From Nemertoderma westbladi (taxonomy: Eukaryota; Animalia; Xenacoelomorpha), in contig JAUCBJ010001217.1 of NCBI GenBank assembly GCA_032718475.1, positions 1-39,582 on the forward strand: a stretch of 39,582 nt of DNA, in the 5' to 3' direction. The translations under genes were made by a program, and so were the position numbers. Of the stretch, positions 3,201-34,485 are shown one piece after another. The notes under the pieces are model-generated. The model ran no database searches. It was not told the DNA's origin and saw nothing but the letters and a program-made list of their open reading frames with translations. Position 1 is the first letter of the stretch. Every line of letters starts with the position of its first letter.

Positions 3201-5470
3201 CACATCCCCATAGACAATCACACATCCCCCATAGACAATCACACATCCCCCATATACAATCACACATCCCCCATAGACAATCACACATTCCCCATAGACA
3301 ATCACACATCCCCCATATACAATCACACATCCCCATAGACAATCACACATTCCCCATAGACAATCACACATCCCCCATAGACAATCACACATCCCCCATA
3401 GACAATCACACATTCCCCATAGACAATCACACATCCCCCATATACAATCACACATCCCCATAGACAATCACACATCCCCATAGACAATCACACATCCCCC
3501 ATAGACAATCACACATTCCCCATAGACAATCACACATCCCCCATATACAATCACACATCCCCATAGACAATCACACATCCCCATAGACAATCACACATCC
3601 CCCATAGACAATGACACATCCCCCATAGACAATCACACATTCCCCATAGACAATCACACATCCCCCATATACAATCACACATCCCCATAGACAATCACAC
3701 ATCCCCATAGACAATCACACATCCCCCGTAGACAATCACACATTCCCCATAGACAATCACACATCCCCCATAGACAATTACACATTCCCCACAGACAATC
3801 ACACATCCCCCATAGAGAATCACACATCCCCCATAGACAATCACACATCCCACATAGACAATCACACATTCCACATAGACAATCACACATTCCACATAGA
3901 CAATCACACATTCCCCATAGACAATCACACATCCCCCATAGACAATCACACATTCCCATAGACAATCACACATCCCCCATAGACAATCACACATCCCCCA
4001 TAGACAATCACACATCCCCCATAGACAATCACACATTCCCCATAGACAATCACACATCCCCCATATACAATCACACATCCCCATAGACAATCACACATCC
4101 CCCATATACAAACACACATCCCCATAGACAATCACACATCCCCCATAGAGAATCACACATCCCCCATAGACAATCACACATCCCCCATATACAATTACAC
4201 ATCCCCATAGACAATCACACATCCCCCATATACAATCACACATCCCCATAGACAATCACACATCCCCCATATACAATCACACATCCCCATAGACAATCAC
4301 ACATCCCCCATATACAATCACACATCCCCATAGACAATCACACATGCCCCATATACAATCACACATCCCCCATATACAATCACACATCCCCCATATACAA
4401 TCACACATCCCCATAGACAATCACACATGCCCCATAGACAATCACACATGCCCATAGACAATCACACATGCCCCATATACAATCACACATCCCCCATATA
4501 CAATCACACATCCCCCATATACAATCACACATCCCCATAGACAATCACACATCCCCTATAGACAATCACACATCCCCCGTAGACAATCACACATGCCCCA
4601 TAGACAATCACACATGCCCATAGACAATCACACATGCCCATAGACAATCACACATGCCCCATATACAATCACACATCCCCCATATACAATCACACATCCC
4701 CCATATACAATCACACATCCCCCATATACAATCACACATCCCCCATATACAATCACACATCCCCATAGACAATCACACATCCCCCATAGACAATCACACA
4801 TCCCCCGTAGACAATCACACATCCCCCATAGACAATCACACATCCCCCATAGACAATCACACATGCCTCATAGACAATCACACATGCCCATAGACAATCA
4901 CACATGCCCCATATACAATCACACATCCCCCATATACAATCACACATCCCCCATATACAATCACACATCCCCATAGACAATCACACATCCCCCGTAGACA
5001 ATCACACATCCCCATAGACAATCACACATTCCCCATAGACAATCACACATTCCCCATAGACAATCACACATCCCCATAGACAATCACACATCCCCCATAT
5101 ACAATCACATATCCCCATAGACAATCACACATCCCCATAGACAATCACACATCCCCCATAGACAATCACACATCCCCCATAGACAATCACACATCCCCCA
5201 TAGACAATCACACATCCCCATAGACAATCACACATCCCCCATAGACAATCACACATCCCCCATAGACAATCACACATGCCCCATATACAATCACACATCC
5301 CCCATATACAATCACACATCCCCCATATACAATCACACATCCCCATAGACAATCACACATCCCCCATAGACAATCACACATTCCCCATATACAATCACAC
5401 ATCCCCCATATACAATCACACATCCCCATAGACAATCACACATGCCCCATAGACAATCACACATGCCCCA
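232..5470. repeat. Tandem satellite, 20-21 bp unit (CATAGACAATCACACATCCCC), ~250 copies
   Basis: Uninterrupted tandem array with recurrent variants (TTCCCC/TCCCCC, TATAC/TAGAC, GAGAATC, TCCACAT, late ATGCCC). The GMCDCLW/GCVIVYG ORFs are translations of the repeat. Confidence 0.98.
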
Positions 5471-13733: not shown

Positions 13734-14065
13734 CTTACCTTACCTATCTGTGTATCGCGATGTATTTCGATTTCAACCGCGCTCTAACTCTATTTACATT
13801 CACGCTAATAACGATTATCCTCACTGTTTACTATATCATCAAAAGGAAATTCGGAGATCATCTTCTCAAGTTCTTCGCTCCTGTGTTAATACTTCTAGAA
13901 GGTCTGCAAGTACCTATACGATGGACCTTTACCATACTGTTCATCCTCTTCTATTTAGTTTTTGTCATTTATGACACGATTCAAGATGTCTCCCGTCTGG
14001 TATCGGGATTGGGTATCTTTGTGTTCATAGCCATCGGTGTGTTGTCTTCCAAACATCCCAACGCT
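13734..14065 (+). CDS. SLC28A3: SLC28/CNT nucleoside transporter exon (N-terminal TM segments)
   Basis: TTTTTCAG acceptor and GTGAGT donor at 14066 (phase 0). The translation ...FDFNRALTLFTFT...SRLVSGLGIFVFIAIGVLSSKHPNA matches CNT N-terminal motifs (F-x-RAL; LVS-x-x-G...SKH). The symbol denotes the family; orthology is not established. Confidence 0.88.
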
Positions 14066-15309: not shown

Positions 15310-16503
15310 AATTGCTGAAGGCAGACATCTGTTCCAACTTTGTTATTTACAATCCGTTTCATCTGAAAACTTGGCAGGTATCTACTATAAAATAAGTTGC
15401 ATCTTTTCAAGGATGCAAAGCCACCTGGAGTTCCCCAGTCTACAGATATGGTGGCAAAATGCGGGATACTTAGAACCTCAAATTTCGTTATTTTAAATAT
15501 GCTTAAGGTGAAATTTGACATTTGAAACTATATGCTAGACAATAGGCTGTATTTTCATGATGATGTGGATGCTGATCTGTATGCAGTTCTTCCAATGCCA
15601 AAGATTTATCACAGTAGCGTAACATTCAAGATTAACAACACTCATGCACTATAAAGCATTCTAGTATGTTTATAGATATGAATAATTTATGAGTGCTGAA
15701 TTCACAATCTCCTCTGCCCTAAATCAAAATTGACGTGGCGTCCCCTCAAAATATTTAATAATACAAAAAATCTCCAACCTTCTACGTTTGAATCCCCTCA
15801 TATAAAGGGCCTTAAACCTTTACAGTAACTTGTTACCATTATAGCAATGGCAGGAGTATAATCCTCTTGACCTCCATTAGTGATTTTTCAATCTTTCAAA
15901 TTTTTATCATTTTATATAAAGTTAGACTTCTATTTTACATCATTTTAGTACAACATGCCCACGTTTCACAGTGGGCCAGAGTTGGCCAAAATACCCCAAA
16001 AGTGACTTGTTTAATTTTATCTGAAAACTAGCCTATGTTGAAGAGCGTATTTGAAAACATGGAAAAAATATTTTCGAATTTAAAAATTCGTCTTGTTTCA
16101 CAAGATATAGGGCCAAAAGTTAAAAAAATATCATATTTCAAAATTTGATAAGCTGCGCTTTTTTTCCCTCAAGAGCCTTCGTCAATTTGTTTCATCAAAA
16201 ATGACCCACTACTATAGCACTTCTAACCAGTAAATTATAAAAATGCCCTTTTGTGCCCCTTTTGAAAATTTGGCTTTTAAAAATGTTCATTATTTCAAAA
16301 AAATGTCATTTATCGTAAATTATGGTGTTTTTGCTGCTACTTGTAATTCATTACTGTGATTCATTACTGATCTCCCCAGCAGCCTTCCTAGATGCCTCTA
16401 TTAGTATTACCTGAACCGAGCCTACGTACATACGATAAGCAATTAATTCTGATTGGCTGGCCTATTATTTCGTGTAAGGGTAAGCTGTCTTAATAAAACG
16501 GTA

Positions 16504-16640
16504 GGTGCTAAAATGCACAACGAGCAAGAACGAGCAACAATGAGCAACAACGAGCAATAATAAAGTACAACAACGAGTAACAATTAACAATGAGCAACAA
16601 CGAGCAACAATGAGCTACAACGAGCAACAATGAGCAACAT
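16504..16640 (-). repeat. Short inverted copy of the 10-bp TTGCTC(A/G)TTG satellite with shared flank
   Basis: GGTGCTAAAATGCAC followed by CAACGAGCAA/CAATGAGCAA units is the reverse complement of the end of the 31366-32266 array, including the TAAAGTACAAC variant. Confidence 0.9.
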
Positions 16641-16982
16641 TACATTACGGGCATCCTCAAACGTAATAAACCAATAAGATTTTACATTATTTCCTCTTGA
16701 CAAGTAGACACCATTATCATCAGATTTTGCTGAAGCAATTCAAATTACATCGCAGTTCAGTCTTTACGTATTCTAGTAGGTTTCGTTTTCAGTTCAAGTT
16801 CCTCAGGATTGCAAAGAAACACATTTAAAATAGTTTTAGAATCCCATGATTGCTTGTCGCTGCTGGCAGTAACTGATGCCATTTCATCCCCACCCTCCAT
16901 TATAAAGGACATGTAGTTTCAGATTTTATAAAATGGAAATTAGATAGCCCTACATTATACTACACTACATTTCATAATACAC

Positions 16983-17187
16983 TTATAACTTATGTTGGGC
17001 ACAGCTTTTGCAAAGTCGGCGAGTTTACCTGCTCATGGCCTCTCATCAGTCAATACCATCATGTGATGCCACTGTGCTCAACCCTACAATACTAGGGCTA
17101 CAGACTTCCAAGCCAAAGGTCACCAGTTCGATCCCACCTGGACGTCATTGCCGACTTTGCAAAAGCTGTGCCCAACAAAAGTTATAA
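16983..17187. mobile_element. 205-bp element with 38-bp inverted repeats and an internal tRNA-like fragment
   Basis: 16983-17020 and 17150-17187 are inverted with 1 mismatch. The interior GACTTCCAAGCCAAAGGTCACCAGTTCGATCCC contains a B box-like GTTCGATCC. Confidence 0.7.
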
Positions 17188-17635
17188 TAATATGAAACCA
17201 CTGATTCACTCATAACACCAATAATAAATAATACCCTTAGTATGGCATGACAACAAATATGCTACAGTACCAAAATCAATATGGTGTCGTCGCGTTACGG
17301 CTACTGACACGCTATGGCTACTCTAAAAGTCGCGTTACGGCTAATCTATTGTCTTGGTTTTACATACGGGAATCATTATCAATATTGTTCCAAGTCAAAA
17401 GAAGTACGTTATCTTACTACATATATATCTACTTGTGGCGGTTAACTTCAAAGTCCTAAGTACAACTAATAAATTTAATTGAATTTCCGTTAGTTGGATC
17501 TACTGTAAACTTCCCAACAAAATGTACTGTAGATAGGCCTAACGCAATCGTGACATTCCCCTAACATAAGCAATAATATGAATATTATGATAATAGCGAA
17601 TGAAAAAAATGCAATAGTTATAAAGTATTTAAATT

Positions 17636-17676
17636 CGAACGTTTCGATTTAATCAATAAATCATCATCAGCGTAGG
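17636..17676 (-). ncRNA. Hammerhead-like motif in the Penelope pseudo-LTR (second copy at ~18994-19034, +, has a mutated core)
   Basis: The - strand reads CTGATGA-T-GATTTA-TTGAT-TAAATC-GAAACGTTC: core boxes, a 6-bp stem II and palindromic AACGTT. Stem I pairing is weak. The + copy reads GTGATGA and has a stem II mismatch. Confidence 0.55.
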
Positions 17677-18612
17677 AATGACTCATTCATTCTATTCCGT
17701 GACCGAAAGCATGCTACAGATTTTCTGAACTACCTTAACTCTAAACATTACGGCATTGAGTTTACCATCGAACATGAACTACGCCACTCTCTAAATTTCC
17801 TTGACGTCCTAATCAAGTTTAATGAAACAGATAACTCATTCCAAACATCTATTTACCACAAACCAACCTTTACTGGCCTATACACTTCCTATGGCAGTTT
17901 TATCCCGAATAAATTTAAAGTTTCCCTTATTGCAACGCTAGTTTACCGCTTGCTCATGATTTGCTCCACCTGGTGCCAATTTCAAACAGAAATATCGGTC
18001 CTACATAAGCATCTTACACTTAATTGATACCCTATGACTATGTTGTCATGGGTAACGGACAAAGTTATCGTGAAATTCACACATGCACCTAATGTTACCC
18101 CCGACACTGTTCCAAAAAAGTCAGTAATTTTAGTTCTACCGTACTTAGGGACGTATTCAACCATCCTACAGAAACGTTTACGCATCCTGTGCAAAGCTTA
18201 CCCTCAGTGTAACTTTAGGATCATATTCCGGCCCGCAACCCGGCTTGGGGTTTTTTTCCCATTCAAGGATAAACTTCCATTATCTCTCAGATCCCTTACC
18301 TTTTATAAATATAAGTGTAGTAGCTGCGATGCTACTTATATTGGCGAATCAAAACGCCATTTCAAGGTAAGAGTATGTGAACATATTGGTATATCTCCCC
18401 GAACAGGAAGACCCACATCCGCTCCCAGACACTCAGCAATACATGATCACTCCCTAGAGTTTGATCATAAGTTGTCCTATACCGATTTCACGGCTATAAG
18501 TAGGGCCAATACAAATTACGATCTTCTCATTAAAGAAAGTCTGTATATCAAGCATGAGAAACCTACTCTTAATATCCAAGGGACGTCCTTTCCTTTACAC
18601 CTGTTCCAGTAA
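17677..18612 (+). pseudogene. Penelope-like RT (C-terminal part) + GIY-YIG endonuclease, one in-frame stop
   Basis: A single frame reads NDSFILF..FLNYLNSKH..IEFTIEHE..LNFLDVLI..IYHKPTFTGLY, then TGA at 18025-18027 (N*YP), then LPYLG and YKYKCSSCDATYIGESKRHFKVRVCEH...LLIKESLYIKHEKPTLN. Confidence 0.92.
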
Positions 18613-19364
18613 ATTATCTTTTCGCAACCCATCCCCATCCCTGCCCCCCCCCCCCCCCCTCCCCCCGACCGAGCACTTATGTACCTACCTACACTATACA
18701 TTAATTCTAAATATTGTTTTTTTCACTATCTTACGTGCACCTACAATACGTTTTGTAACCCGTTTTGTAACGTTTAGGTAACCCCAATAATTCTGTATCT
18801 ATATGATTTTACGTTTACCCATATACATACCTGTAATCAATTCTGCTATAATACTTACTGCCTACCGGTATCTGTTGCATACTCCTAATAACTTTAATTT
18901 TACATGATTCTGAATTCTGATATTGTTGTATTTAAATCTATTGCAGTACTGTAGTATAAATATGTTAATTTGTTCATTTTTACTGTCTGTTAGCCTACGG
19001 TGATGATGATTTATTGATTACATCGAAACGTTCGAATTTAAATACTTTATAACTATGGCATTTTTTTCATTCGCTATTATCATAATATTCATATTAAGAC
19101 TATAACTATGGCATTTTTTTCATTCGCTATTATCATAATATTCATATTAAGACTGAGATACCCCACTGGGACTTCAATCACTTCTATAAGCAATAATACT
19201 AAGAAGTGCTGAAGTAATGAACAATGAAGCTATTAGCAGGGGCGTAGGCTGGTAGACAGGGGGGTAGATACTGGTTTCTAGGCCCGAATGATGGCCATTA
19301 ACAACTCTGTAATACAGTAGGCCTAACTGGGCAAAGTCTACTGAAGTCTACAAAAATAATTAAT

Positions 19365-19525
19365 TTTGTTCTAGAACAACAATTATTTGTTCTAGAACAA
19401 CAATTATTTGTTCTAGAACAACAATTATTTGTTCTAGAACAACAATTATTTGTTCTAGAACAACAATTATTTGTTCTAGAACAACAATTATTTGTTCTAG
19501 AACAACAATTATTTGTTCTAGAACA
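19365..19525. repeat. Perfect 21-bp tandem repeat TTTGTTCTAGAACAACAATTA (7 full + 1 partial)
   Basis: Identical units, each containing the palindrome TTGTTCTAGAACAA, with no spacers. Confidence 0.97.
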
Positions 19526-20302
19526 GGCACATAAGAGTTGTGGAATTCCAGCATAATGTGGTTAAATATTATTATTATTATGAACACAAAGAAGAAAAGT
19601 TTTTTTTCATTATTTGACATGGCCAATGATTGCAAGTGAGCCATCAGATTTTTTACAAAGGAACTACTGATGACCACATAGTTATTCTTGGCGGACTTAT
19701 AGAACGCCCTTTTGCTGTTACAAGTTCTTGCCACTTCGGAGATTTGACTGTTCGCATTATTCTTTAATTATATGTCTTTCCCATTCATTCCAAACCTCGA
19801 ATTGCTTCCTACATTACAGTAAACCGTAATTAATTATACGATAATCTCATACGGAATGGAGTCGAACCGCCCAGAATTCTAGCTGATTAGCATACCATCT
19901 ATCTGCACACAACGCTGTCACACATCAACCAATTTCATGCGCTTTTAATGCACATATTGCTTTCAATTTCAACATGGATAAAGAATAAAAAAAAATTGAT
20001 TAAAATACGCTGAAGAACAGTAATCACTGAACTTTAATTTCCTTTGAAATATGAAGATGGATGTAAACTACACGAAGATTTCAGCATAATTCTAAATTAG
20101 AAATACTAATAATGAAAATACTAACTAATACTACTAAGAATGATGGATAATGATAAAAAGTACTGATTATGTTGCTATTATGTTTGAATACTTATTTATA
20201 TCATATGACTGGAAACAGTCATGCGGTGGCTACTACCTGCTATTTGCATCAGTTTTCGCCTGGAGAGGATTCAATTTAATTAACCCCCCCCCCCCCCCCC
20301 CC

Positions 20303-20547
20303 TGTTTTGGATTCACTCTCATTCAATTGCGGACAATATAATATAAAATAATAATATGCCGATATGACATTACTGCATTATGTATTCCAGTATTCTTGAT
20401 ACTCATTTTGTCTGACAATTTCAGTTCTAAATATAAAAAAGACACTACTGACTGGTCTGTCTAACACTACTGCACTACCGGTAACACATACTGACTAACA
20501 CTACTGCTTACAATAATTGGGACTTAGGTCATATAAATGTCACGACA
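20303..20547 (-). repeat. Putative 3' LTR of the BEL element (245 bp)
   Basis: The - strand begins TGTCGTGACA after the PPT-like tract and ends CCAAAACA at the poly-G. Only its first 39 bp recur at the other end. Confidence 0.6.
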
Positions 20548-20569
20548 CTCCGCCTTCAAAAAAAGTTTT

Positions 20570-23500
20570 TCAATATATATATTCATCATATTCTAAAGGA
20601 TATAGCAGTTTCAATGGCCTTTTTATAATCCTTTTTGAAGGGAGAGTTAGTTTGACAGATCGTATCAGCCCGTCATGACTCTGGATAAGTTGAGTTACTT
20701 TACCTAACTTCCACGATCCCCTTGGTAGGTTTTTCTCGTTTATTATTACAATGGATCCTATTTTTACTTCAGTATCTACAGCATGATTCTGTTTAATGTG
20801 TCTTTGATATCGTTCTCTTAAGGCTGGTAAGATATTCATCATTGAATATTGTCCAGCATTGATTTAAATATATCATTCCTTTCTTCCAATACTCTAGTAG
20901 GTCTATGGCTTTGGATTTCTTTGTTCCCGGTGTGTAATCTTTATCCTTCTCATTTTCAATTTCGATATAAGGAATCCCAGGTTTAGTATTGATAGTTAGA
21001 AAATCATTGGGAGTTAGGACGTATCTATCTTCCAGATCCGCACCAACGTAAGTTAAGGGTCGTGTATTGACCACAGCTTCTACCTCTGTCATAACAGTAT
21101 ACAATTGTAGATAGTTAAGACGCAATTTTCCTAGAGTTTTTCGCAGTGTACGTTTTATTATACCAACCATTCTCTCATAGAATCCACCCATCCATGGTGA
21201 TAGTTCTGGTATATATTTAATGTTTATTCCTTTACTGGAAATGTATGATAATACATCTTCATCATTTGTGACCTTCTTCCATAAGTTATTCATGACAGTG
21301 TCTGTGAGTTTGAACTGACCAGCATTGTCACAAATTATATTAGTAGGAGTTCCTCTCCTAGAGACAAATTGTCGTACACACATTAAGAATTCTTCAGATG
21401 ATTGATTAGCAGCTAGTTCGAGATGAATTGATCTCATTACTAAACAAGTGAAAAGACATACCCATGTTTTCACATTTTCCTTTGAAGGAAGTTATATGTA
21501 TAATGGTCCTAGGTAATCTAATCCAATGTGTTGGAAAGCAATAGCTTCAGTAGTTCTTAGTAAGGGAAAAGGAGGCATAATTGGTAATTTGTAAAGTCCT
21601 CCTTCCCATTTTCGGCAGGTCTTGCATATGAGCAGAACTGACCGCACTGCTCTTCTTCCCTGTGGTATCCAGTACTCTTTGCGCAGGGTTGATAATGTGT
21701 GGTTAATCCACGCATGTAGTCTACTTACATGAATGTGTTCTATTATTAGTGTAGTTAATGGAGAGATGGAATTTAGATGGAATTTTAGAGATAGTTGATG
21801 GAATTTGCAATAATCATCATTACTGATGTTTTCCAATCTTCCATAGCATCTAATTAGTCCATCGTTGTCTATCTTTAATCCAAGTTGATTAATAAGGTTG
21901 TTTCTTTTTCCATTGATGATATCATGTTTTATGTCTTTGAAGTGGTTCGATTGTATGTATTTCTCCCAAATTAATTTCGCATTGTTGATTTCTGTAGTCG
22001 TTAGGCATCCATTCAATTTCGTCTTTCCACGACAGTTTATAATAAATCTCTGAATCCATGCAGAAATACGTAGGATTCTGATCCACTTTGAATATTTATT
22101 TATGTCTAGTCCAAATGGTGTAGTCTTCATTTCATAAGATTTTTTGGTTATAATTGGAAGAGAAGCTTCGAATAGTATTTTGGAGGACATGCAACCCTGT
22201 ATTGCATCAATTGTTTTTTTTGTTATTTCTTCAACTCCCCAATTGGGCCATAATGATATATCACTTATGATCCATTTTGGTCCATTCCACCATAATGTGC
22301 TATTGTAGAGCTGTTTGGTTGTATATTGGCACCTAGTTGCAATATCAGCAGGATTATCTTGCGTATTCACATATCTAAAGTTGATGTTACTTGTATTTCT
22401 TATTTCTTTCAACCTATTTTCAATAAACACAGTCATTCTTTTATCACTTTTGAGCCAGGCTAAAACACATTGTGAATCGCTAAACAGTGTCTTTGTTTCC
22501 ATTTTCAGCTTTAGTTGTTCTTCAGCGAATTTAATACATCGGATGCCAATTACCATTGCCATTAGTTCTAAGCGAGGAATACTTGGCTTTTTTCGTTGAT
22601 TATCCTTCAAACTCTGTTTTGATATTGGGGCTAATCTATTTTTTGCAAATAATAACATTGATTTATATCCAGATTCAAGTGATATCCGTAAATATATTGC
22701 TGCTGCGTATGCTGTTTCCGAAGCATCGCAAAAACACATTAAATCAAGTTCATAATCCCCCAAGTTGCTCTGTATCTCTCCTTCAAATATATGTCGTGGG
22801 ATTTGGCATTCACTAATTTTCAATAGTTCATTGGCAATACTTGGCCACCTATTGATTATATTGTCGTTGAGTTTCATATTCCAATCTAGTTTTTCTCCCT
22901 TTTGTCTATCTTTCCACACTTCTTGGTATAATACCTTTGCTTGCAATGTAATAGGAATGAAATATCCTAACAGATCAAATATCTTTCCTAGGTTCTGCAA
23001 TATGTCACGAATATTTCTTACCTTAGTTTTAATGTTTGATTCTGCAATATGTATTTTATCGGCTTCAATATTCCATCCAATTCCAAGTACTTTGGTTACA
23101 CGTGATTTCATTAGATCAGCAAAATACATTTTATTAAGTAATTCATTAGAATTTGATGACCATTCACGTACATTCATAGAGGCTCCTTTAAAAATCTCTT
23201 TAGACTCAATATATAATTGTTTACCTTCATCTACATTATTCACTGAAGCTATTAAATTATCCACATATAAGTTATCCTGAATAACTTGGGCTACAGGAGT
23301 ATTGGTATTCTCTAAATGGTGTGCGATAACAGCACCAAGGAGATACTGGCACGAAATGATTCCAAATGGTATTTGACAAAATCGCATTGTGACAATATTG
23401 TTTTTCAATGGTTGCTTTATATCATTTGGGTCTTTATACCAGAAGAAACGAGTTACATCTTTATCTGTTTCTTGAATTCCTACTTGTAGATAAGCCTTTT

Positions 23501-24575
23501 CAATATCTGATATAATAGCTATAGATCTAAGACGAAATCGAATTAGCACCCCTGTCAAGTCTCTCATCAATGATGGTCCACGATACAAACACTCATTTAG
23601 GCATTTGCAATCTTTGTTTTTCTTTGCGCTAGCATTATATACTATACGTACCTTTGTTGTTGTTTTAGAGAGTTTAATTACAGGATGATGAGGAATATAA
23701 TGTTTGATTGGTTTATGTTTGTCATTCTCATCCTCATCACTTACTGTTTCGATTATACCATTATCCAGTTGATTGTTTATTATTGCGGAATACTTATCAT
23801 GTAAATCATTGTTCTCGATTAATCTTTGATGTAAAGATTTAAATCTATTGAAGGCTAAGTCACGATTTTCATTTGGATATTCATTATTGGGTTTCCATGG
23901 CTAACTAACGAAATATCTGTTATTTTCATATTTAACATTTTCTTTAAAATTTATAATCACTTGATCATCATCATCATTCATAGTTGGGTCTTCTATTCCA
24001 ATTATTTCCATCTTCCAGTAACTTTCGCTGTTGTTTATTACATTGGGTTCATATTGTTGATCCATATTGTCAAAAATCAACATAGATGTCTCATTAAATG
24101 ACTTATCTTCATTATCAGTATATCTCCCACTGATAACCCAACCAAATGTGGACTTTATCAAGCTTGGGCCTTCAGGCAGATTTATTTTCTCACCTGAAAT
24201 GAAATCTCCATAATAGTCTAATCCAATGAGGAAATTGATGTTTGTAATTTCATTTTCACCTGGAATTGTGTCCGCTAACGGTAAATCTTTCCATATTTCT
24301 TCAGATTTACCAAGATCAATTGACGATCTTTCAATTGGCCCAGTTATAATATTGACGACATGAACTGTTATTTGTTGGGAATTTCTGTTCATATCATATA
24401 GATTGATATCTGCTAATTTAAATGGTATCCTGATTGGTTCCTTTCTACCAAATGTGTTGGCAACAATTTCGCCTGGATCTCTTTCTACTAAAAATTCAAT
24501 TCTTTTGAAAATGAATGAGTAACATAAGTCCGCTTGCTTCCTGTGTCAAAGAAAACTCGTGTTGTAATTGGTTTC
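20570..24575 (-). pseudogene. BEL/Pao pol: aspartic protease, RT, RNase H, integrase, C-terminal DUF5641-type domain; several stops/frameshifts
   Basis: RVFFDTGSKRT (~24530-24560), SDIEKAYLQV, NLYVDNL, FCDASETAYAA, HIGLDYLGPL, WVCLFTCLVMRSIHLEL, SPWMGGFYERMVG and PRGSWKLGKV, split across ORFs 23901-24392, 21492-23588, 20793-21473 and 20570-20842. Confidence 0.93.
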
Positions 24576-24577
24576 AT

Positions 24578-26129
24578 TTATGTATGTCCAGGTTTCTGAA
24601 CATCTATTAAGGCAGTTTGCATTATGACTGACTCGTTAATTGACATTACTGGCAAACAATTGCTGGGATATCCATTGTTATCTTGCGATTCATTTAACTC
24701 CAATCTTTCTTTTGTTGCAACATTTTCAACTAATAAATTTGGACTACCCGCACTTTGATTTGAATGTTTTTTATAACATAAGCTTCTATGATGGTTTTTT
24801 GTTCTTCCACAGTGAGTACAAGTATAATTATATGTGCAATATCTAGTAGAATGACTCTCCTTTAAACAAATGTTACATTTGTTGCTCAACTGCAATTGTT
24901 TTTTTCGGGATGCGACATCCGGATATTTGTGGCATTTTTTTGTGGCGTTTTGGGTTTCCTGAGCAATACACACATGATCTATTTTCACCAAAGGATCGTT
25001 TACCAGCAACTGTTAATGCATGGCTAGTGGGTTTGTATTGCTTATAGTTATTTGGTCCTGACCAACCTTTATTGGTATTTTTATTATACGATGTTTCATG
25101 GTTATTCTTATTATGAATATCTCCGGAAGTCCTTTCAGTTAATGAATCGCGTCTTTCAGCTGCTTCTCGAGAAGCAATGTATCGCTTGAGGTTATTGCGT
25201 AAGGTACTTACTTCCCATTTTTCACTTGGATCTTTAAAGTACTCTAATTGTACTTTTACTTCCATTGGTAATTTCGAATAAATCATTGATACAAAAATTG
25301 GTTGAGAGATGTTTTCACCTAACCCTTCTAGGCTTCTAAGATTCTTTTCTATTGAATCATATGTGAGACGCAATCTACTTGTTTCATTCCTAGAAACAGC
25401 CAAATTCATTAATTCAGTATATATGGCATCAATTAAGGTTTGCGTTTCCCCAAATCTTTCTTTTAACAGTTCTACAGCTACATTATAATTTTCATTAGTC
25501 AATTGCAATCCTGAAATTTCCCTTTTGGCTTCACCGTCTAACTTTGTACGCAAGTAATTAAATTTCTCAACTGGTTTCAACTCATTTTTACTATCAATAG
25601 CTGCTTCAAATGAATCCCAAAATTCACCCCATTTTAATACATTTCCTGAAAAACGTTCTATATCCAATTTTGGCAAATTAACCTTTACTCTGCTTCCGGC
25701 ATAGTGAATTGCACTGATGCCCCCACCTTCATTAACTTGCACATTACTCATATTCATTGTTGCCTCTTCAAGGTTTGCTTGTAGGCCTATTTGTGCTTTG
25801 ACTTCATTTCGGTATTCATTGATACGTTGTATTCTCACAATTAGACGAGATGAAGAATTCATTATTTGATCATTAAATAGTGATACTGTACTAATTTCAT
25901 TATTCACAGCATCCCCATCATCGTCAGGCAATAAATTTAAAATTTGTTCATTAAGGGTATCTAAATCTTGACCATATAATTTAAGTTTACTTTTAGTTAT
26001 TTCAGCATCTTCTAAATTTATTTCATTTCCATCACTCATTAATTCATCAACTATTTTAAATAATTTCTTTATATTGGTCCTTGCAGCTTCTCTCTTCAAC
26101 CGCAATTTATTTGTCCCGGTTCCAGGCAT
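24578..26129 (-). pseudogene. BEL/Pao gag (DUF1759-type) with zinc knuckles, frameshifted
   Basis: VNLPKLDIERFSGNVLKWGEFWDSFEAAID...EKFNYLR...ENYNVAVELLKERFG. The knuckles CNICLKESHSTRYC and CTHCGRTKNHHRSLC are in a shifted frame. Confidence 0.9.
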
Positions 26130-27499
26130 TTCTGCAGGCCTGTTTGATTATTATTTAACAAATTTCAGCATTGACTTCAGGCATTACTAATGGCCTGTTA
26201 TTATTCTGTTTGATAATTATATTATTATTTAACATTGGTCTGTTGGTGTAGGACTATTAGGCATACACTCATTGTACAGTTGTAGTACTGGTATCCAACA
26301 TTATAAAGAGGATAATATATACAATATACATATATGGGCAGTCCAAGTTAATGCATCTTCGACTGCTTTAATTCAATCAAACAATGATGGCTGTTTTCCC
26401 AAGCACCGGTAGGCAGTAGGCCTATTATTACGAATGGTTAAGTATTAATTATGCACTCACCAAATCATCAAATTCTACCGGTCAGCCGATAGCTGTGGAC
26501 AATCTTTACGTCTGTATGGCATTCCAGGTCCTTATATCTGTTACTGTTTGTATGTGGCGTGGCTCGTTCGTTTTATATTCCAGGATTCGCCAAGTTTAAT
26601 TGATTCCGATTCATTATACTGATATAGGGAATACGTAGCGCATATAGCAGTATAGGTAGGCCTTAATTAAGTAGGCTGGGCTGTAGGCCTAGCTAATTTA
26701 TTGTTGATCCCTTTCATTAGAATTTCAGTACCGGTATCAGCGGAAGGTTATTCATTTAGTCTAAGCTGTTATACAATAATTGGGACTTAGGTCATATAAA
26801 TGTCACGACACCCCCCCCCCCCCCCCCCTCCTTTTCCGTATATAGTATGGTAATTACTTTAAAAAAAGTATTTTCAAGCTAAAGTTGATAAAATGCAATC
26901 AGCTCATTGCTATATACGCTGTACTGTATGGAGGAAGGTTAGGTGGATCTCTCGTATGAAATCATCCTACCACTATTGTAAATTATTCCAAGAAAAAACG
27001 TTACTGTAGGCTGAATGGTTGATGTTTAAGGATGGGAAGGCTATAACCAACCACCCAGTCACCTAAAGTAAAATATAAATCTAATATAAAGCTTCAACAT
27101 ATAAATAAAAATTTAATAGGACTAAAGTAAATAACAAATCAAATATGTACAAAATAGGCTTGGCCTACCCCATCCCACAAGCTATACAGTAGTCTGTAAT
27201 ATAGAACGCTAGGCAGACTTCAGGACTGCCAGGCAATCAGGTCACTGTCCAACTGTATAAAATACAAAATAATAATACGAAAACCAGTTCACACTTCACA
27301 GTGACGTATATCAGACAGTCAGAACCAGATATATATATATATTAAAATCCGGGATGTCCCCGGCGCTATAATATTGCCATAAATAAAATCATAAAAATCG
27401 ACGCACATAATGCTTAAAATAATAGAGTAAGGGCACATAAAATAATACTATTTCTATTCGGTTGCCACAAGTAGACAATATGTGGATTTCAAGCCAGTG

Positions 27500-28350
27500 A
27501 TAGATAGTACACTAAATAAGCCATTCAATATGACATATTATGTGATATACATATAGAATCATAATTCAAAATTCAAATGAAGAAAAATAATAAATTTCGT
27601 GAATTGCTATTAACAAGTGACGTAGCACTGGCACTGTACCAAAACTTCTTCGCCGCCGATATACAAAACAAAAACGATACCGGTATATAGTTGTGAAATA
27701 TGCTACGTTGACAACCAGTATATATATACCGACACCAGTATATAGATATACAGAATTCGATACCGGTATATAGTTGTGAAATATGCTACGTTGGCACTGC
27801 ACCAATAGCTTATTTGCCGCAGATATACAAAAAATCGATTTTACACGGGCACGGGCACCGACACCAGTATATAGATATACAGAATTCGACACCGGTATAT
27901 AGATGTGAAATATGCTACGTTGGGACTGTACCAATAGCTTATTTGCCGCAGATATATTAAAAATCGATTTTACACGGGCACGGGCACGGGCACCGACACC
28001 AGTATATAGATATACATAATTCGACACCGGTATATAGATGTGAAATATGCTACGTTGGCACTGCACCAATAGCTTATTTGCCGCAGATATATTAAAAATC
28101 GATTTTACACGTATACCAGTAAATAGATGTGAAAAATGCTGCGTATAGGAATTTAAAATATAATTATACATACCGGTATGCATTTCAAGCCAATGTTAGT
28201 ACTCGAAATAAACCATTCACTATTCTTTAGGCATTAAGATATTATTATGTGATATACATTTCAAAAATTCAAATCAAATTAAAATAAATTTCGTGAATTA
28301 ATTGTTATTAATCAAGCGACATAGCACTAGCACAAAAGATGTGAAAAATG
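27500..28350 (-). repeat. Tandem/segmental duplications at the LINE 3' end (~120-126 bp units plus a ~690-bp-spaced duplicate)
   Basis: CCGGTATATAG(A/T)TGTGAAATATGCTACGTTG...ACCAATAGCTTATTTGCCGCAGATAT recurs at ~27760, ~27890 and ~28025. 27510-27635 resembles 28205-28333. Confidence 0.85.
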
Positions 28351-31080
28351 CTACGTGTGGGGATTTAGAAATTCCTTTAATATCATTAATCTAGTGGATA
28401 TAGCGTAGTTTGTATTGTTCAAGAGTGATTGCGAGTACCAAGTGGTGAATTGATCCTTGGGGCTAATATCCGCCGTCTGGGCCATTTTTGCGGTTTGACT
28501 ACAATGTTTGGTTGAATATGGGTGGACAGCAATGGATAACAAATTCGGATTATTATATCTCCATGCTGTGAAATTATATGATGCAAATATGTCTACTGAG
28601 GGTCCCACACAATGGTCACACAATGTACTACCAAAGAGAAAGGCTAGTTTGGGATTCTTTGTATTAAATAATCTGTATATTAATTGAAATTGATTCAATC
28701 TAAGCTGTAATTCCACGTCCATTCCAAATAGCTGATATATCACTTTGTTTGAAATTCTGTTGTTCATTCCGATAATATGACGCATCGCTTTACGCAACTC
28801 CTTAGCTGTTTTGTCAATTTTTCCTGATGGTAGAGCAGCAGAGCCATATAGAATGCTCGATAGGCAAATTGTGTTCCAAACTAGTTTAGTTACATCCAGT
28901 GGGACTTCATTGATTGTTAGACCTCGGTGCGAGATCAGACCTACATTGCCCCAAATTTTTCCAATTACAAACTTTGATATTGTTTTGCCATCAGCTGGGA
29001 GGGGAATGCCCATATATTTGCAACTTTTTTTTGATTGCAGTGTTTTATCCTTGAGGGTAAGCATGTCATTGGTGTTCGTAGTGCCTTTGGTGTTAATGGA
29101 CAGGAAGTGACACTTTGACTCATTTAATTTGAGGTTGTGATCTCTGAGATACTGTGAACAAATTTCCAGTAAACTAGTGAGGTGTGACTTCATGTTCGCC
29201 AGGATTATAATGTCATCAGCGTAGTTTATGGCGCAGAAAGAAATATCTTTAATGTGGATACCAAGGTTTGACTTTTCGAGCTGTTCGAATAGGTCTGTCA
29301 GATAGAAATTGAACAGGAAAGGTGACAAGATACCACCCTGTCTCACTCCCTGTTGAATTGCAATTGGTTCACCTATAGTGTATCCCCCACAAGAGACATA
29401 TGCAGAAGATTGGTTGTAGTACGATTCTAAAGCGTTGATTATGTTTCCGTCTATATTGGTTTGTCTTAGTTTATGAAAGAGTTTGCTATGAGATATCATA
29501 TCAAAGGCACAGCTAAGATCCAAACTGAGTAGGTACATAGGAGATCCCTTCTTAGTAAATTTGTTGATGAGACTGGAAACAACGGCTTGATGGGCTATGT
29601 CTGATCCTATGTGTGGTTTGTATCCTAGTTGCAGGTGATTTGGAGATATAGATGTTATTTCTTTCAAGATGGATAGTTCCCAGAGCTTTCCTAATGTAAG
29701 TGTAACACTTATGTTCCTGAAGGATTGTTCTTGTGGAATAATACATTCTGTCTTATGGAGTTTGGGCACGGGTGCAATGGTCCCAAGAGAGAAAATCTTT
29801 GGGCATACACCACTGTTAGAAATTTCTGCAAAAAGTTCTGCAATGAAGGAGCATAGAGTCTCCGTCCGCCCATATATGAGACATTCAGCATTTATCCCAT
29901 ATAGATCACTAGTTTTGCCAGTGTTTAGTTTACTAATTAAATTGTAGATTTCAGAGGGATTTACTGTATGTTGTTTGGTTGGGTTGCATTGGCCAGATTG
30001 TTTGGTTGGGTTGCATTGACCAGTTTGCTGAGCTGCAGAATACTTTTCGTTTTCGGGTAAAGATAAGCTGGTTTTGATGGTACTAAATATTTTGCTAAGG
30101 TGGATATCAGAAACTGTATTTGTAACTCTTTTGGGCTTAATTTTCCTCCAGAAAGCGCTAGGATTGGTGCGGTTTGATGCCACAAGCGACTTCACATGAC
30201 TTTTATACTCAAACGATGGATTTTTATCTGATTGATTATATGTTCTATATTTGACGAAAGAGGAGGGAATATTTGATCTGCAGGCATTTCCAATAGTTTT
30301 TACCACGAGTTCTGCCTTACTATTGATGTCTTGGCTTGTATAATAAAGAAGATTCTGTTCTATTTCAGCACGGTAGGATTCTAATTGCTGTTTGGATGCT
30401 CTATTAAAATGAAAACGAATATTTTTGTTTTTTGTCTTTCTCACCATTGCATGGTGTTTATTTGGATGAGTATTTAATGTGATCTCTGAGAGCACGGGTA
30501 GGTGTCTTGAAACATTGTTTTTGGTACAGTTGAAAATTACTCCACCTGTGAGATAGTTGTACCATGATGTAGGTATGAAGGTATGATCGATGTGGCTTTT
30601 TTTGTGTCCATCTTTGCACTGCATGAGATAAGTAAATCTGTTTCCATTCGTTTTTTGAGTCATGTCCGCAGCGATGAAGTTGTATTCTGATATAATTTTC
30701 TCAAGGAAAATGTCTCCAAACTTCGATGATTTGACAGCTCCTCTGGGCTGTAACTGCTGATCTCCCTTTATGACCCCATTTATATCCCCCATAACAATTG
30801 GGGTTAGATTTTGGTTTAAACATTCATCAATGATCAGTCCTAGTTTCCCAACTTCTTTAAGATAATTAGATTCATCATCCTCTCTTCCACAGTTTGATGG
30901 CAAGTATACATTTAAAATTGCTATGTCTTCAGTAAACAAAGATCTGATGACAATGCCAGAAATTCGGTCAGAACCGGTTTTAAAACTTTTGCAATGCGGT
31001 ATTATGTCATTTCTTACATATATCGCTGTACCACCTTCGCCGCGAACTCTAGGTTTAGGCTTCAGCATTTCACTAGACAC
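28351..31080 (-). CDS. Non-LTR retrotransposon (LINE) ORF2: APE endonuclease (N-terminus missing) + reverse transcriptase, 909 aa uninterrupted
   Basis: EN motifs GGTAIYV, ILNVYLP, IVMGDIN, SHIDH and SRHLPV. RT motifs FRNISV, QLGYK, LDLSCAFDMISH, GVRQGGILSPFLFNFY, YADDIIIL and KYMGI. Confidence 0.92.
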   Translation of the reverse strand: MSSEMLKPKPRVRGEGGTAIYVRNDIIPHCKSFKTGSDRISGIVIRSLFTEDIAILNVYLPSNCGREDDESNYLKEVGKLGLIIDECLNQNLTPIVMGDINGVIKGDQQLQPRGAVKSSKFGDIFLEKIISEYNFIAADMTQKTNGNRFTYLMQCKDGHKKSHIDHTFIPTSWYNYLTGGVIFNCTKNNVSRHLPVLSEITLNTHPNKHHAMVRKTKNKNIRFHFNRASKQQLESYRAEIEQNLLYYTSQDINSKAELVVKTIGNACRSNIPSSFVKYRTYNQSDKNPSFEYKSHVKSLVASNRTNPSAFWRKIKPKRVTNTVSDIHLSKIFSTIKTSLSLPENEKYSAAQQTGQCNPTKQSGQCNPTKQHTVNPSEIYNLISKLNTGKTSDLYGINAECLIYGRTETLCSFIAELFAEISNSGVCPKIFSLGTIAPVPKLHKTECIIPQEQSFRNISVTLTLGKLWELSILKEITSISPNHLQLGYKPHIGSDIAHQAVVSSLINKFTKKGSPMYLLSLDLSCAFDMISHSKLFHKLRQTNIDGNIINALESYYNQSSAYVSCGGYTIGEPIAIQQGVRQGGILSPFLFNFYLTDLFEQLEKSNLGIHIKDISFCAINYADDIIILANMKSHLTSLLEICSQYLRDHNLKLNESKCHFLSINTKGTTNTNDMLTLKDKTLQSKKSCKYMGIPLPADGKTISKFVIGKIWGNVGLISHRGLTINEVPLDVTKLVWNTICLSSILYGSAALPSGKIDKTAKELRKAMRHIIGMNNRISNKVIYQLFGMDVELQLRLNQFQLIYRLFNTKNPKLAFLFGSTLCDHCVGPSVDIFASYNFTAWRYNNPNLLSIAVHPYSTKHCSQTAKMAQTADISPKDQFTTWYSQSLLNNTNYAISTRLMILKEFLNPHT

Positions 31081-31365
31081 TGTATATGTCGGACATAATA
31101 GGTTGAGGTAAGTTTCAACGACACGACTCTACCCGAACAGAACAAGACTGATAGACTGAAATTAGGTAAACTGATAAATATTTGTAGGCCTACCGGTCCC
31201 GGTATAGCAGTATTGTGCACCATCTTGATGACATTGCGGGTATGGAAGCATTTTTTATTAAGTTCTTGGTTGGGAATTTATTTATATCCTACATACAGAC
31301 ATATATATTCGGGATTACTGGGATACACTACAGTATACTGCATAGGTTTAATGAATGTAGGCCTA

Positions 31366-32266
31366 TTGCTCGTTGTTGCTCATTGTTGCTCGTTGTTGCT
31401 CATTGTTGCTCGTTGCTGCTCATTATTGCTCGTTGTTGCTCATTGTTGCTCATTGTTACTCGTTGTTGTACTTTATTATTGCTCGTTGTTGCTCATTGTT
31501 GCTCATTGTTACTCGTTGTTGCTCATTGTTGCTCGTTGTTGGTCATTGCTGCTCATTGTTAATCGTTGTTGTACTTCATTGTTGCTCGTTGTTGCTCATT
31601 GTTGCTCGTTATTGCTCGTTGTTGCTTATTGTTGCTCGTTGTTGTACTTTATTATTGCTAATTGTTGCTTATTATTGCTCGTGTTGCTCATTGTTGCTCG
31701 TTGTTGCTCGTTGTTGCTCATTGTTGCTCATTGTTACTCGTTGTTGTACTTTATTATTGCTCGTTGTTGCTCATTGTTGCTCGTTGTTGCTCATTGTTGC
31801 TCATTGTTGCTCGTTGTTGCTCATTGTTGCTCATTGTTGCTCGTTGTTGCTCATTGTTGCTCGTTGTTGGTCATTGCTGCTCATTGTTAATCGTTGTTGT
31901 ACTTTATTATTGCTCGTTGTTGCTCATTGTTGCTTGTTGTTGCTCATTGTTGCTCATTGTTGCTCGTTGTTGCTCGTTGTTGCTCATTGTTGCTCGTTGT
32001 TGCTCATTGTTGCTCATTGTTACTCGTTGTTGTATATTATTGCTCGTTGTTGCTCATTGTTGCTCATTATTGCTCGTTGTTGTTCATTGTTGCTCGTTGT
32101 TGGTCATTGTTGCTCGTTGTTGTACTTTATTATTGCTCGTTGTTGCTCATTCTTGCTCGTTATTGCTCATTGTTGCTCGTTGTTGCTCATTGTTGCTCGT
32201 TGTTGCTCGTTGTTGCTCATTTTTGCTCGTTGTTGCTCATTGTTGCTCGTTGTGCATTTTAGCACC
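31366..32266 (+). repeat. 10-bp satellite TTGCTC(A/G)TTG, ~0.9 kb
   Basis: Tandem 10-mers with recurring TTGTACTTTATTA and GGTCATTGCTG variants. The CCSLLLVVAH ORFs are translations of the repeat. Confidence 0.97.
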
Positions 32267-33271
32267 ACCATCCATACCTTATTTTTCTAGTTTATTAAAA
32301 AAGCCATAATAGACTGAAAATACCTATACATATAATAATGAACAGGAGGGATCTACACCTGTTTATTTAAAGTCAAAACTGGAGGGGGCATTAGAACCTC
32401 TATTTAAATACACTAAAGAAAATATTCAAAAAAAATGAAAACAAATTGAAAATAAAGAAGATAATTATATCATGCTTTAGTAGCGATTTTGATATTTTGT
32501 GCCATGCTGAACACATGTGCCATGTGCCACGTGCTAATAAGTGTAACTTCTGTACCACTGGATAATTCTAAACTATTTGTAATAGAATCAGCTCCTTTGA
32601 AAACCTATAAAAACCGCAAATGGCACATTTCTATTAAACTTTACCGATTTTTATATTTTGTGCCATGCCAAATAAAAGTGCCATGTGCCTCATGCAAAAA
32701 AGTGGCACTTCTGTGCTACTATAGAATTTTAAACCATTTACTAAAGCTTCAGCACCCTGTTAAACCTTGTGGAACCGAAATCTGTGCTATTCTTTCTTTG
32801 TTTATTGTGTTTGCCAAATATACAAATTTTGGCACGTGCCAGAAATGGCACAAAGCCACCTTTTCAGAATTTGAGACCCATCTCATAATATTCGCCACTA
32901 TCGAAAACCCGTATAGATGAAAAATAGTGCCCAAACTATGAATATTTTTCAAAATAATGAATTTTGGCCATAAACAGGGTTTCTGGACCACTGTGCGTTT
33001 CTGCAATGTTTTGAATAAGAACCCCGGTTAGACCCTTTAAATTATTTGTGTCGAAACGAAATTTCCCTGGCCCATATTTTCTCTCAGAACCACCTTAATA
33101 CAAATAAATTTGCCCGAATAGTTTTAACAATACTACTGGTGATAAATCTACAATATAGAGAAAGCAACTTGATACCACGGTTTCCCCTTTTTATCACAGG
33201 ATTTTGGATTGAGTCCAGCCCATGAGAAATAATACTCAGTGTCAAATCCTTTGTCCGATCACCTCAAACAT

Positions 33272-34282
33272 CAAACATCGGGAGACACACTTGCACCATT
33301 CTTGTTCATAATTGTTGTTGACTATGTTCTACGCATGTCCTTAGATCATCATAATGATGATGGGGTGATGATAACTCCACCTACTGGCTCCAGAAGTCGA
33401 GGAAATCCTGCCAAGTACCTAACTGATCTAGACTTTGCTGATGACTTAGGAGTACTCTCAGAATCACTAGAGGGAGCCCAACGGCTTCTCAGCTCATTAG
33501 AACATGCTGCTTCTAGTGTTGGTCTTTTTATTAACTCCAGAAAGACCGAAATTTTGACAGTTAACTTTGAAAGTCCTCAGCAAGTCTCTGATCGGATGAG
33601 CATAAGCTCAAAGGATGGTATGCTTTAGCACGTGGACGACTTCTGTTACCTGGGATCATGGATCCGGAAGTCAGGTGAGGACCTTCGAATACGTAAGGGA
33701 AAGGCATGGGCAGCCTTGAATAGGCTTTCCAGGATTTTGAAGTCACCGAGAATTAATCGGAAACTTAAGGTCCGATTATTTAGAGCAGCAGTAGTTCCAG
33801 TACTCCTCTATGGGAGTCCATGCTGGGCTCTAACTGCTGAGGACACTAAATCTCTGGATGGCACATTCACAAGAATGCTACGCCGGGTTCATTGTGTCAA
33901 GTACAATGCACACATATCCAACCAGACACTATATAACATATGTCTCATTGGAAGTGTCTTATTGGTTCCCCCTAGTGGTTGACACTAGAACAAAATCGCC
34001 TCCGCTTTGGAGGACATTGCTTTTGCCGTGAGGAACAGCCAGTGCATAATCTTGTACTTTGGCAGCCTCATGGAGTGAATAAGCATGGTGGGCAGCCCAT
34101 GACTTTCTTGAGACGCATCTTAAAGGACACTGGCCTTGAAGATGCGGATGATCTAGCAAATGTCATGGGTGATAGGGAGTTGTGGCGGTGCAATTTTGTC
34201 GATAAGCCCGCACAGCATTCCTAAAAATGCAGCTGCAATCCAGCATGCCGATCCTAGTAGTAGTAGTAGCAGTAGTACTAGT
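33272..34282 (+). mobile_element. 5'-truncated RTE-like LINE with (TAG)n tail and 76-bp flanking direct repeats
   Basis: GDTLAPFLF, LTDLDFADD, FCYLGSWI, KVRLFRAAVVPVLLYGS and RLRFGGHC, with a stop at 33626-33628 and a frameshift near 33960. The TAGTAG tail is at ~34255-34282. Repeats at 33196-33271 and 34283-34358 differ by 1 mismatch. Confidence 0.9.
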
Positions 34283-34485
34283 ACAGGATTTTGGATTGAG
34301 TCCGGCCCATGAGAAATAATACTCAGTGTCAAATCCTTTGTCCGATCACCTCAAACATGCACTCATATCACATATCCTCATACCCATACTATATACTATA
34401 CTATATAATATACTATAGTATACTAACATACTATATATATACATACTACTATATATATGCTAAATATACTATATATACATATATA

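Follow-up and report, generated by a model that had tools for sequence, protein, structure and literature searches.

How does a transposon relate to the Transib and RAG-like elements when both of its ends carry the heptamer of the V(D)J recombination signal sequence (RSS), set at unequal distances from a second conserved block, and are its two ends read differently by the enzyme that moves it? The question is raised by an insertion in a 39,582-nt stretch of Nemertoderma westbladi DNA (assembly GCA_032718475.1, contig JAUCBJ010001217.1; the whole stretch is referred to as the window). The original prediction, made from the sequence alone, had described it as a 17-kb non-autonomous transposon of a Transib or RAG-like family, with 12/21 spacers close to the 12/23 rule and a target-site duplication (TSD) of 5 bp. 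We consider it highly probable that the insertion is one copy of a transposase-less repeated family, likely a non-autonomous Transib cut-and-paste transposon, in which the left box lies one helical turn nearer the tip (spacer of 12) than the right box (spacer mostly of 22, and 21 in this copy).

Ends of the element

The left heptamer, CACAGTG at 15967 on the + strand, is followed by a 12-nt spacer and CCAAAATAC, and the right heptamer, CACAGTG at 32995 on the − strand, by a 21-nt spacer and CCAAAATTC; the element measures 17,029 bp. Both ends, as well as the exact CGTTT on either side, had been predicted and are read directly in the sequence, and the observation of RSS-like ends with a 5-bp duplication in this copy is confirmed. 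Exact heptamers occur six times in the window, and the two-block end is found only on those at 15967 and 32995. As a search pattern, the two blocks gave two matches in the window (both being the element ends) and none in 100 shuffles, a comparison which is circular on its own since the pattern was derived from these very ends. As regards the GC-rich target sites of non-autonomous Transibs, the duplicated CGTTT begins with C, as do 78 of the 91 non-redundant metagenome ends described below, and its final T differs from the G found beside the heptamer in 77 of these 91, a point against the Transib reading. Behind the heptamer the left end can be read as three in-phase 10-bp units, and a second CCAAAA stands there at 15996, with a spacer of 22 (P of about 4e-4 at a given site).

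It is highly improbable that the two ends stem from two independent insertions, with CGTTT matching by chance. Such an origin would be in keeping with a multi-copy family, with ends that are 17 kb apart, with the lack of an element-spanning contig or an empty site among the run contigs, and with subterminal arms that share no inverted similarity (score 27 versus shuffles up to 30). However, a 5-bp agreement among the four convergent heptamer pairs of the window has a P of about 0.006, the two ends are of complementary left and right types, as they are in a contig of one sequencing run (below), and there is no further family end in the window.

A repeated family in public sequencing runs

Contigs of four public runs (X1–X4, with region shares of 0.94, 0.94, 0.91 and 0.20) were aligned to the window. 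Between 15500 and 16500, 76, 62, 99 and 1 contigs aligned in X1, X2, X3 and X4, respectively. The flank 5' of the element is represented by one contig of flat depth (36.5, 84 and 24.8 in X1, X2 and X3), and at 15976–16009 depth rises to 713, 1965 and 1461, a step of 20- to 59-fold, although summed contig depth is not copy number. A search for further copies with these termini had been proposed, and among the run contigs it yielded 17 contigs (5, 4, 7 and 1 in X1–X4) that pass into other flanks exactly before 15967. We conclude that this is a repeated family with a sharp common boundary at 15967, and the data suggest that its copy number is in the tens. At the other end (32860–33110), 48, 22, 29 and 5 contigs aligned, depth is at a single level behind 32995, and one contig each in X1 and X2 continues there into another flank. 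The right junction is bridged in X1–X3 by a single-depth, difference-free contig (32941–33110), and from 32941 onward the exact version of the window is at single depth; at the left junction, the contig extends no more than 29 letters past the element boundary, below the 31-letter threshold for a bridge. Within the right flank, a short repeat at 33022–33066 shows depth raised about 4- to 10-fold in X1–X3 and belongs to another repeat.

A 1229-nt contig of X4 (depth 27.9) carries a left end at 408–450 and a right end at 792–910 on the same strand, about 510 bp apart, the two records having been treated as one contig on the basis of equal length and depth. This suggests a short family member, about 510 bp long, that has an end of each type; its right end seemingly lacks just the heptamer. 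The copy in the window differs from most of the family depth at 16078, 16242, 16266, 16298, 32897, 32917 and 32951. The divergence of about 1–2% over the tested arms would fit a moderately young copy.

Several points weigh against our explanation of the insertion. The four runs represent at most three samples, X2 and X3 being one sample, and one of them may be the source of the window. The right heptamer of the X4 contig is damaged and its flanks match at no more than four of five letters, so the 5-bp duplication is demonstrated in this copy alone; no empty site was seen in the run contigs, of which those of X4 cover neither flank.

Transib-type ends without a transposase

Relatives of the ends were collected from metagenomes by a pattern that called for the two blocks and allowed spacers of 11 to 24, which retrieved 117 stretches, stored as 114 loci. 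These hold 121 ends, with spacers of 23 (105 ends), 22 (11), 24 (2), and 11, 14 and 20 (one each); after removal of duplicates, 79 of 91 ends have a spacer of 23 and none has 12 or 21. A few families from a small number of assemblies make up most of these ends, and the counts are not independent. Four loci (L009, L028, L038 and L067) are distinct, complete paired elements of 1.9–2.5 kb on host-derived metagenome contigs, each with 23/23 ends, a perfect 5-bp duplication and a broken transposase. The frame of L038 matches PDB 6PQN at E=8.5e-84, and its named relatives are insect proteins; we take 6PQN to be the Transib transposase of H. zea. All transposases found beside this end type are of the Transib kind. 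The pattern had no match in viral contigs or prokaryote genomes. Two further loci, L030 (spacer 11) and L102, have two ends each and no matching duplication, and L058 (spacer 14) proved to be a chance match within a bacterial ABC permease. In L030 (320–1022, 703 bp), both of whose ends are of Transib type, it is a different distal block that shifts by 9 bp from one end to the other.

Since the same two-block ends occur at metagenome loci, some of them around HzTransib-like transposases, the ends of the element are by sequence comparison Transib-type and not RAGL-type. Published families agree with this assignment. TransibN1_SP of sea urchin, TransibN1_DP and TransibN1_DM share with the element a heptamer beginning with CAC, a G/C-rich proximal block, GCCAAAA, a 5-bp duplication and the lack of a transposase, and the first 13 letters of TransibN1_SP are identical to the left end (PMC1131882). 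They differ in that both ends of TransibN1_SP and TransibN1_DP have a spacer of 23, whereas here the right spacer is 22 and the left is 12 with a weaker second box at 22.

No remnant of a Transib transposase was found in the window. Pfam is poor at detecting Transib (none of five fragments of true Transib matched, and two of four full proteins matched PF12940 weakly), and we therefore built a profile from 120 full-length transposases. Its best independent E-value (iE) in the window was 3.2, versus 9.5e-206 for L038 and 2.4e-83 for L009, in line with the prediction that the element encodes no transposase. In a tblastn search of the window with 13 Transib fragments as queries, the best match (15344–15484, E=1e-4) lies outside the element, is without the catalytic motif and was missed by the profile, and was dismissed as chance.

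A deletion derivative of a transposon encoding RAG1L and RAG2L, of the RAGL or ProtoRAG type, is a very unlikely identity for the element. It would share with such transposons the exact RSS heptamer, the 5-bp duplication and ends that differ by 10 bp, as they do in PflRAGL-A, and its host is likely a marine invertebrate, a setting in which RAGL elements occur. PflRAGL-A and ProtoRAG likewise have bipartite asymmetric ends, offset by 10 bp in PflRAGL-A, with CAC tips (PMC10629977, PMC8289069). However, they encode RAG1L and RAG2L and carry an A-rich TR2 block after the heptamer, neither of which is present here, and positions 8–10 read AAA in their ends but GGC and GTC in those of the element, where the block is G/C-rich as in TransibN1_SP. 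No RAG family was found at E<=0.1 in the long open reading frames (ORFs) or in the inter-element ORFs of >=42 aa, of which 47 out of 59 were covered (11 repeat-array frames were left out and one ORF was scanned separately), with a library that includes PF12940 and without a RAG1L protein query; PF12940 had no match in the scanned interior ORFs, though it matches even Transib weakly. The prediction of a Transib or RAG-like family is thus narrowed to Transib, on the strength of the blocks, the metagenome loci and the published families.

The spacer pair and its asymmetry

In most of the family depth the right spacer is one base longer than in this copy: the additional base is found in 334 of 553 units of depth in X1 and 954 of 1239 in X2 (four contigs each), in 264 of 781 in X3 (four contigs) plus 376 of 913 (two contigs with a neighbouring placement), and in 115 of 115 in X4 (three contigs). 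The short left spacer is conserved, with no indel in it among the differences listed for the run contigs. The spacer pair of the family is mostly 12/22, and 12/21 is that of this copy; the predicted 12/21 asymmetry therefore stands for the copy but not as the norm of the family, which is nearer to 12/23.

It is well possible, if just short of probable, that the enzyme requires a short end paired with a long one. At a spacer of 12, the left box is preceded by TGG, as is the box of the right end and that of the three published families TransibN1_SP, TransibN1_DP and TransibN1_DM, in which the G precedes CCAAAA at a spacer of 23 (PMC1131882); the box at 22 has no such preceding letters. In a variant that joins 15995 to 16077, at depths of 54.6 (X2) and 43.9 (X3), the box at 12 is kept and TTTAAA replaces the second box.

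The alternative that competes with the asymmetry, and with that part of our explanation only, is a functionally symmetric member of the same Transib family. What the enzyme recognizes at either end would then be the box at 22, or no more than the outermost 14–16 bp, and the box at 12 would serve as an additional binding site or be the by-product of a 10-bp duplication. We regard this as a credible alternative, somewhat less than probable. A number of observations speak for it and against an asymmetric reading: CCAAAA also stands at a left spacer of 22, in register with the right end of the family; the left end reads as three in-phase 10-bp units; and 3, 2 and 2 contigs in X1, X2 and X3 retain the left end through the box at 22 and diverge directly after 16001, the end of that box and the point to which sub-families share the left end. 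Among the metagenome ends, 105 of 121 are of the long type and none has a spacer of 12, the four paired elements are symmetric, no autonomous element with a short end is present, and the family-type box at spacer 11 in L030 sits in the longer of its two ends. The spacers themselves may also vary: a diverged contig (record 15 of X2, record 23 of X3) is gap-free over 32932–32995, so a spacer of 21 may exist in other copies too, and record 2 of X1 has two gaps at places other than those among the differences listed, so that the left spacer may vary as well. Against the symmetric alternative stand the TGG that precedes the box at 12 and not that at 22, and the 15995–16077 variant; moreover, contigs that diverge within about 30 letters may escape alignment, which would bias the observed limit toward 16001.

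Returning to a non-autonomous Transib with one short and one long end, a series of events can be proposed from what is known of Transib. Supplied from another place in the genome, a Transib transposase would have bound the two ends, made its cuts at the CAC tips and integrated the element through a 5-bp stagger. The short end was likely derived from the common form with a spacer of 22–23 by a shift of one turn (10 bp), by which the box would stay on the same face of the helix. Three retroelements would later have landed in the element, roughly tripling its length.

Interior of the element and genomic surroundings

The coordinates of all features are collected in Table 1. The three nested retroelements together make up about 10.9 kb, or about 64% of the 17,029 bp, and leave about 6.2 kb, including arrays and unassigned DNA. 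The 17-kb size comes mainly from these insertions, and of the predicted 17-kb non-autonomous transposon the multi-copy nature and the lack of a transposase remnant are upheld, the size as a trait of the element itself is not.

Table 1. Features of the window, with coordinates, strand and supporting evidence
Feature	Position	Strand	Evidence or remarks
SLC28 (CNT) nucleoside transporter exon, host gene	13736..14065	+	E=2e-7 to sodium/nucleoside cotransporter structures
Left TSD copy, CGTTT	15962..15966	+	Sequence
Left terminal repeat: CACAGTG, proximal block, GGCCAAAA box (CCAAAA at 15986, spacer 12), second CCAAAA at 15996 (spacer 22)	15967..16001	+	
Left family arm, repeated (approximate right limit)	15967..16478	+	Loose contig ends behind 16478; depth drop at 16486-16500
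Short array made up of a 10-bp unit, in inverted orientation to the 31366-32266 array	16504..16648	+	
Nested insertion flanked by a 13-bp target duplication (17566/19186), its 103-bp ends in inverted orientation, with two pieces of ORF	17579..19185	+	
Nested BEL/Pao long terminal repeat (LTR) retrotransposon, several broken ORFs, between two C runs (limits approximate)	20303..26810	−	PF03564, PF05380, PF17921, PF18701
Nested long interspersed nuclear element (LINE, non-LTR), 925-aa open frame with reverse transcriptase	28351..31128	−	PF00078, E=4.8e-32
Long array, about 87 copies of the 10-bp unit seen at 16504-16648	31366..32266	−	
Right subterminal arm, GTGCCA/TGGCAC repeats	32481..32958	−	Genomically repeated over the tested part, 32862-32958
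Right terminal repeat: CACAGTG, box CCAAAATTC, spacer 21 here and 22 in most of the family depth	32959..32995	−	
Right TSD copy, CGTTT	32996..33000	+	Sequence; junction bridged in X1-X3

The first of the nested insertions is, judged by its motifs, presumably a Penelope-like retroelement; it had no library match. The named relatives of the BEL protein are from molluscs, cnidarians, a hemichordate and sponges (about 35–46% identity), and a search with the SLC28 exon gave no longer relative, so that the host is given here as no more than a likely marine invertebrate. The LTR starts of this element agree over only 46 bp (20509–20554 versus 26772–26817), and it looks as if one LTR was replaced or rearranged. 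The LINE frame matches R2 and L1 ORF2 structures with E of about 1e-21, and beside its 3' end (27483–28333) direct repeats of about 150 bp (69% alike) enclose a 135-bp tandem array. Both arrays of the 10-bp unit start with an identical 15-letter head, 537 and 729 bp inside the ends of the element. They could be subterminal arrays, the ends of an inner element without a duplication, or two separate insertions; as the ends of an inner element they were rejected in the ordinary form, there being no duplication around either array or around the pair. A 228-bp segment at 16970–17197 with 51-bp inverted ends (90% alike) is possibly another small nested element, for which a duplication was not found.

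The element likely lies in an intron of the SLC28 gene, as judged from a single exon 1.9 kb upstream. The window also contains a 5.2-kb satellite (232–5470; 252 copies of a 21-bp unit with 93% matches and a strong strand skew) and, at 33196–34358, a truncated piece of reverse-transcriptase sequence lying between direct repeats of 76 bp (99% alike), which is unusually long for a target duplication. A tRNA search of the sequence gave none, and Rfam gave one sub-threshold match, within a tandem repeat.

Comparison with known systems and significance

End geometries resembling RSSs are already published for Transib, and the family described here is likely an additional Transib member. Kapitonov and Jurka (2005; PMC1131882) reported five Transib families with RSS12- and RSS23-like ends, the asymmetric insect families Transib5, Transib2_AG, TransibN1_AG, TransibN2_AG and TransibN3_AG. 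Like these, the element has a short and a long end, an offset of about one turn (11 bp in TransibN1_AG) and a 5-bp duplication; unlike these, it has other block sequences, a 10-bp offset, two heptamers that both match the RSS consensus exactly and a likely marine invertebrate host. Tao et al. (2022; PMC9435367) reported that ends are asymmetric throughout subgroup I of Transib and in part of subgroup II, and Martin et al. (2023) described PflRAGL-A ends that are asymmetric by 10 bp as well as many echinoderms with intact Transib ends. Its own asymmetric pair of ends was preferred by ProtoRAG in assays, and mobilization of Transib in trans has been reported (bioRxiv 10.64898/2026.08.26.747230). 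A published description of the present family was not found in the literature searched; it is possibly catalogued in Repbase or Dfam, which were not compared, and published end-alignment figures may hold closer relatives.

With the V(D)J RSS the element shares an identical heptamer, and the family spacers of 12 and 22 fall within 12+/-1 and 23+/-1. When compared with the V(D)J nonamer, both boxes match at 6/9 positions, including AA at positions 5 and 6. The element differs in that its signals flank a transposon with a target duplication and not antigen-receptor segments, and in that the right spacer of this copy is 21; its left end, moreover, can also be read with a spacer of 22.

The origin of the 12/23 signals is debated, an asymmetric Transib (PMC8355894) and a RAGL-A element (PMC10629977) having been put forward as the source. 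In the family described here, ends with exact RSS heptamers and spacers of 12/22 are made of blocks whose spacing in related Transibs is 23/23; asymmetry can therefore likely come about through no more than a one-turn shift, and is not necessarily a sign of relatedness to RAG. It is interesting to speculate further that, in a marine invertebrate, a Transib lineage went from symmetric 23/23 ends to a 12/22 rule of its own through such a shift, with only short–long pairing permitted, a left end that is a dual 12-and-22 signal preserving the transition, and ends that vertebrate RAG could cut. We consider this unlikely; if true, one could test directly whether a plain Transib gave rise to the 12/23 rule. 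The number of close copies suggests that a transposase with little decay could perhaps be recovered and used to examine whether Transib enforces the asymmetry; lacking its cognate enzyme, this would be one more non-coding Transib family. The family is a modestly useful case for how RSS-like asymmetry arises.

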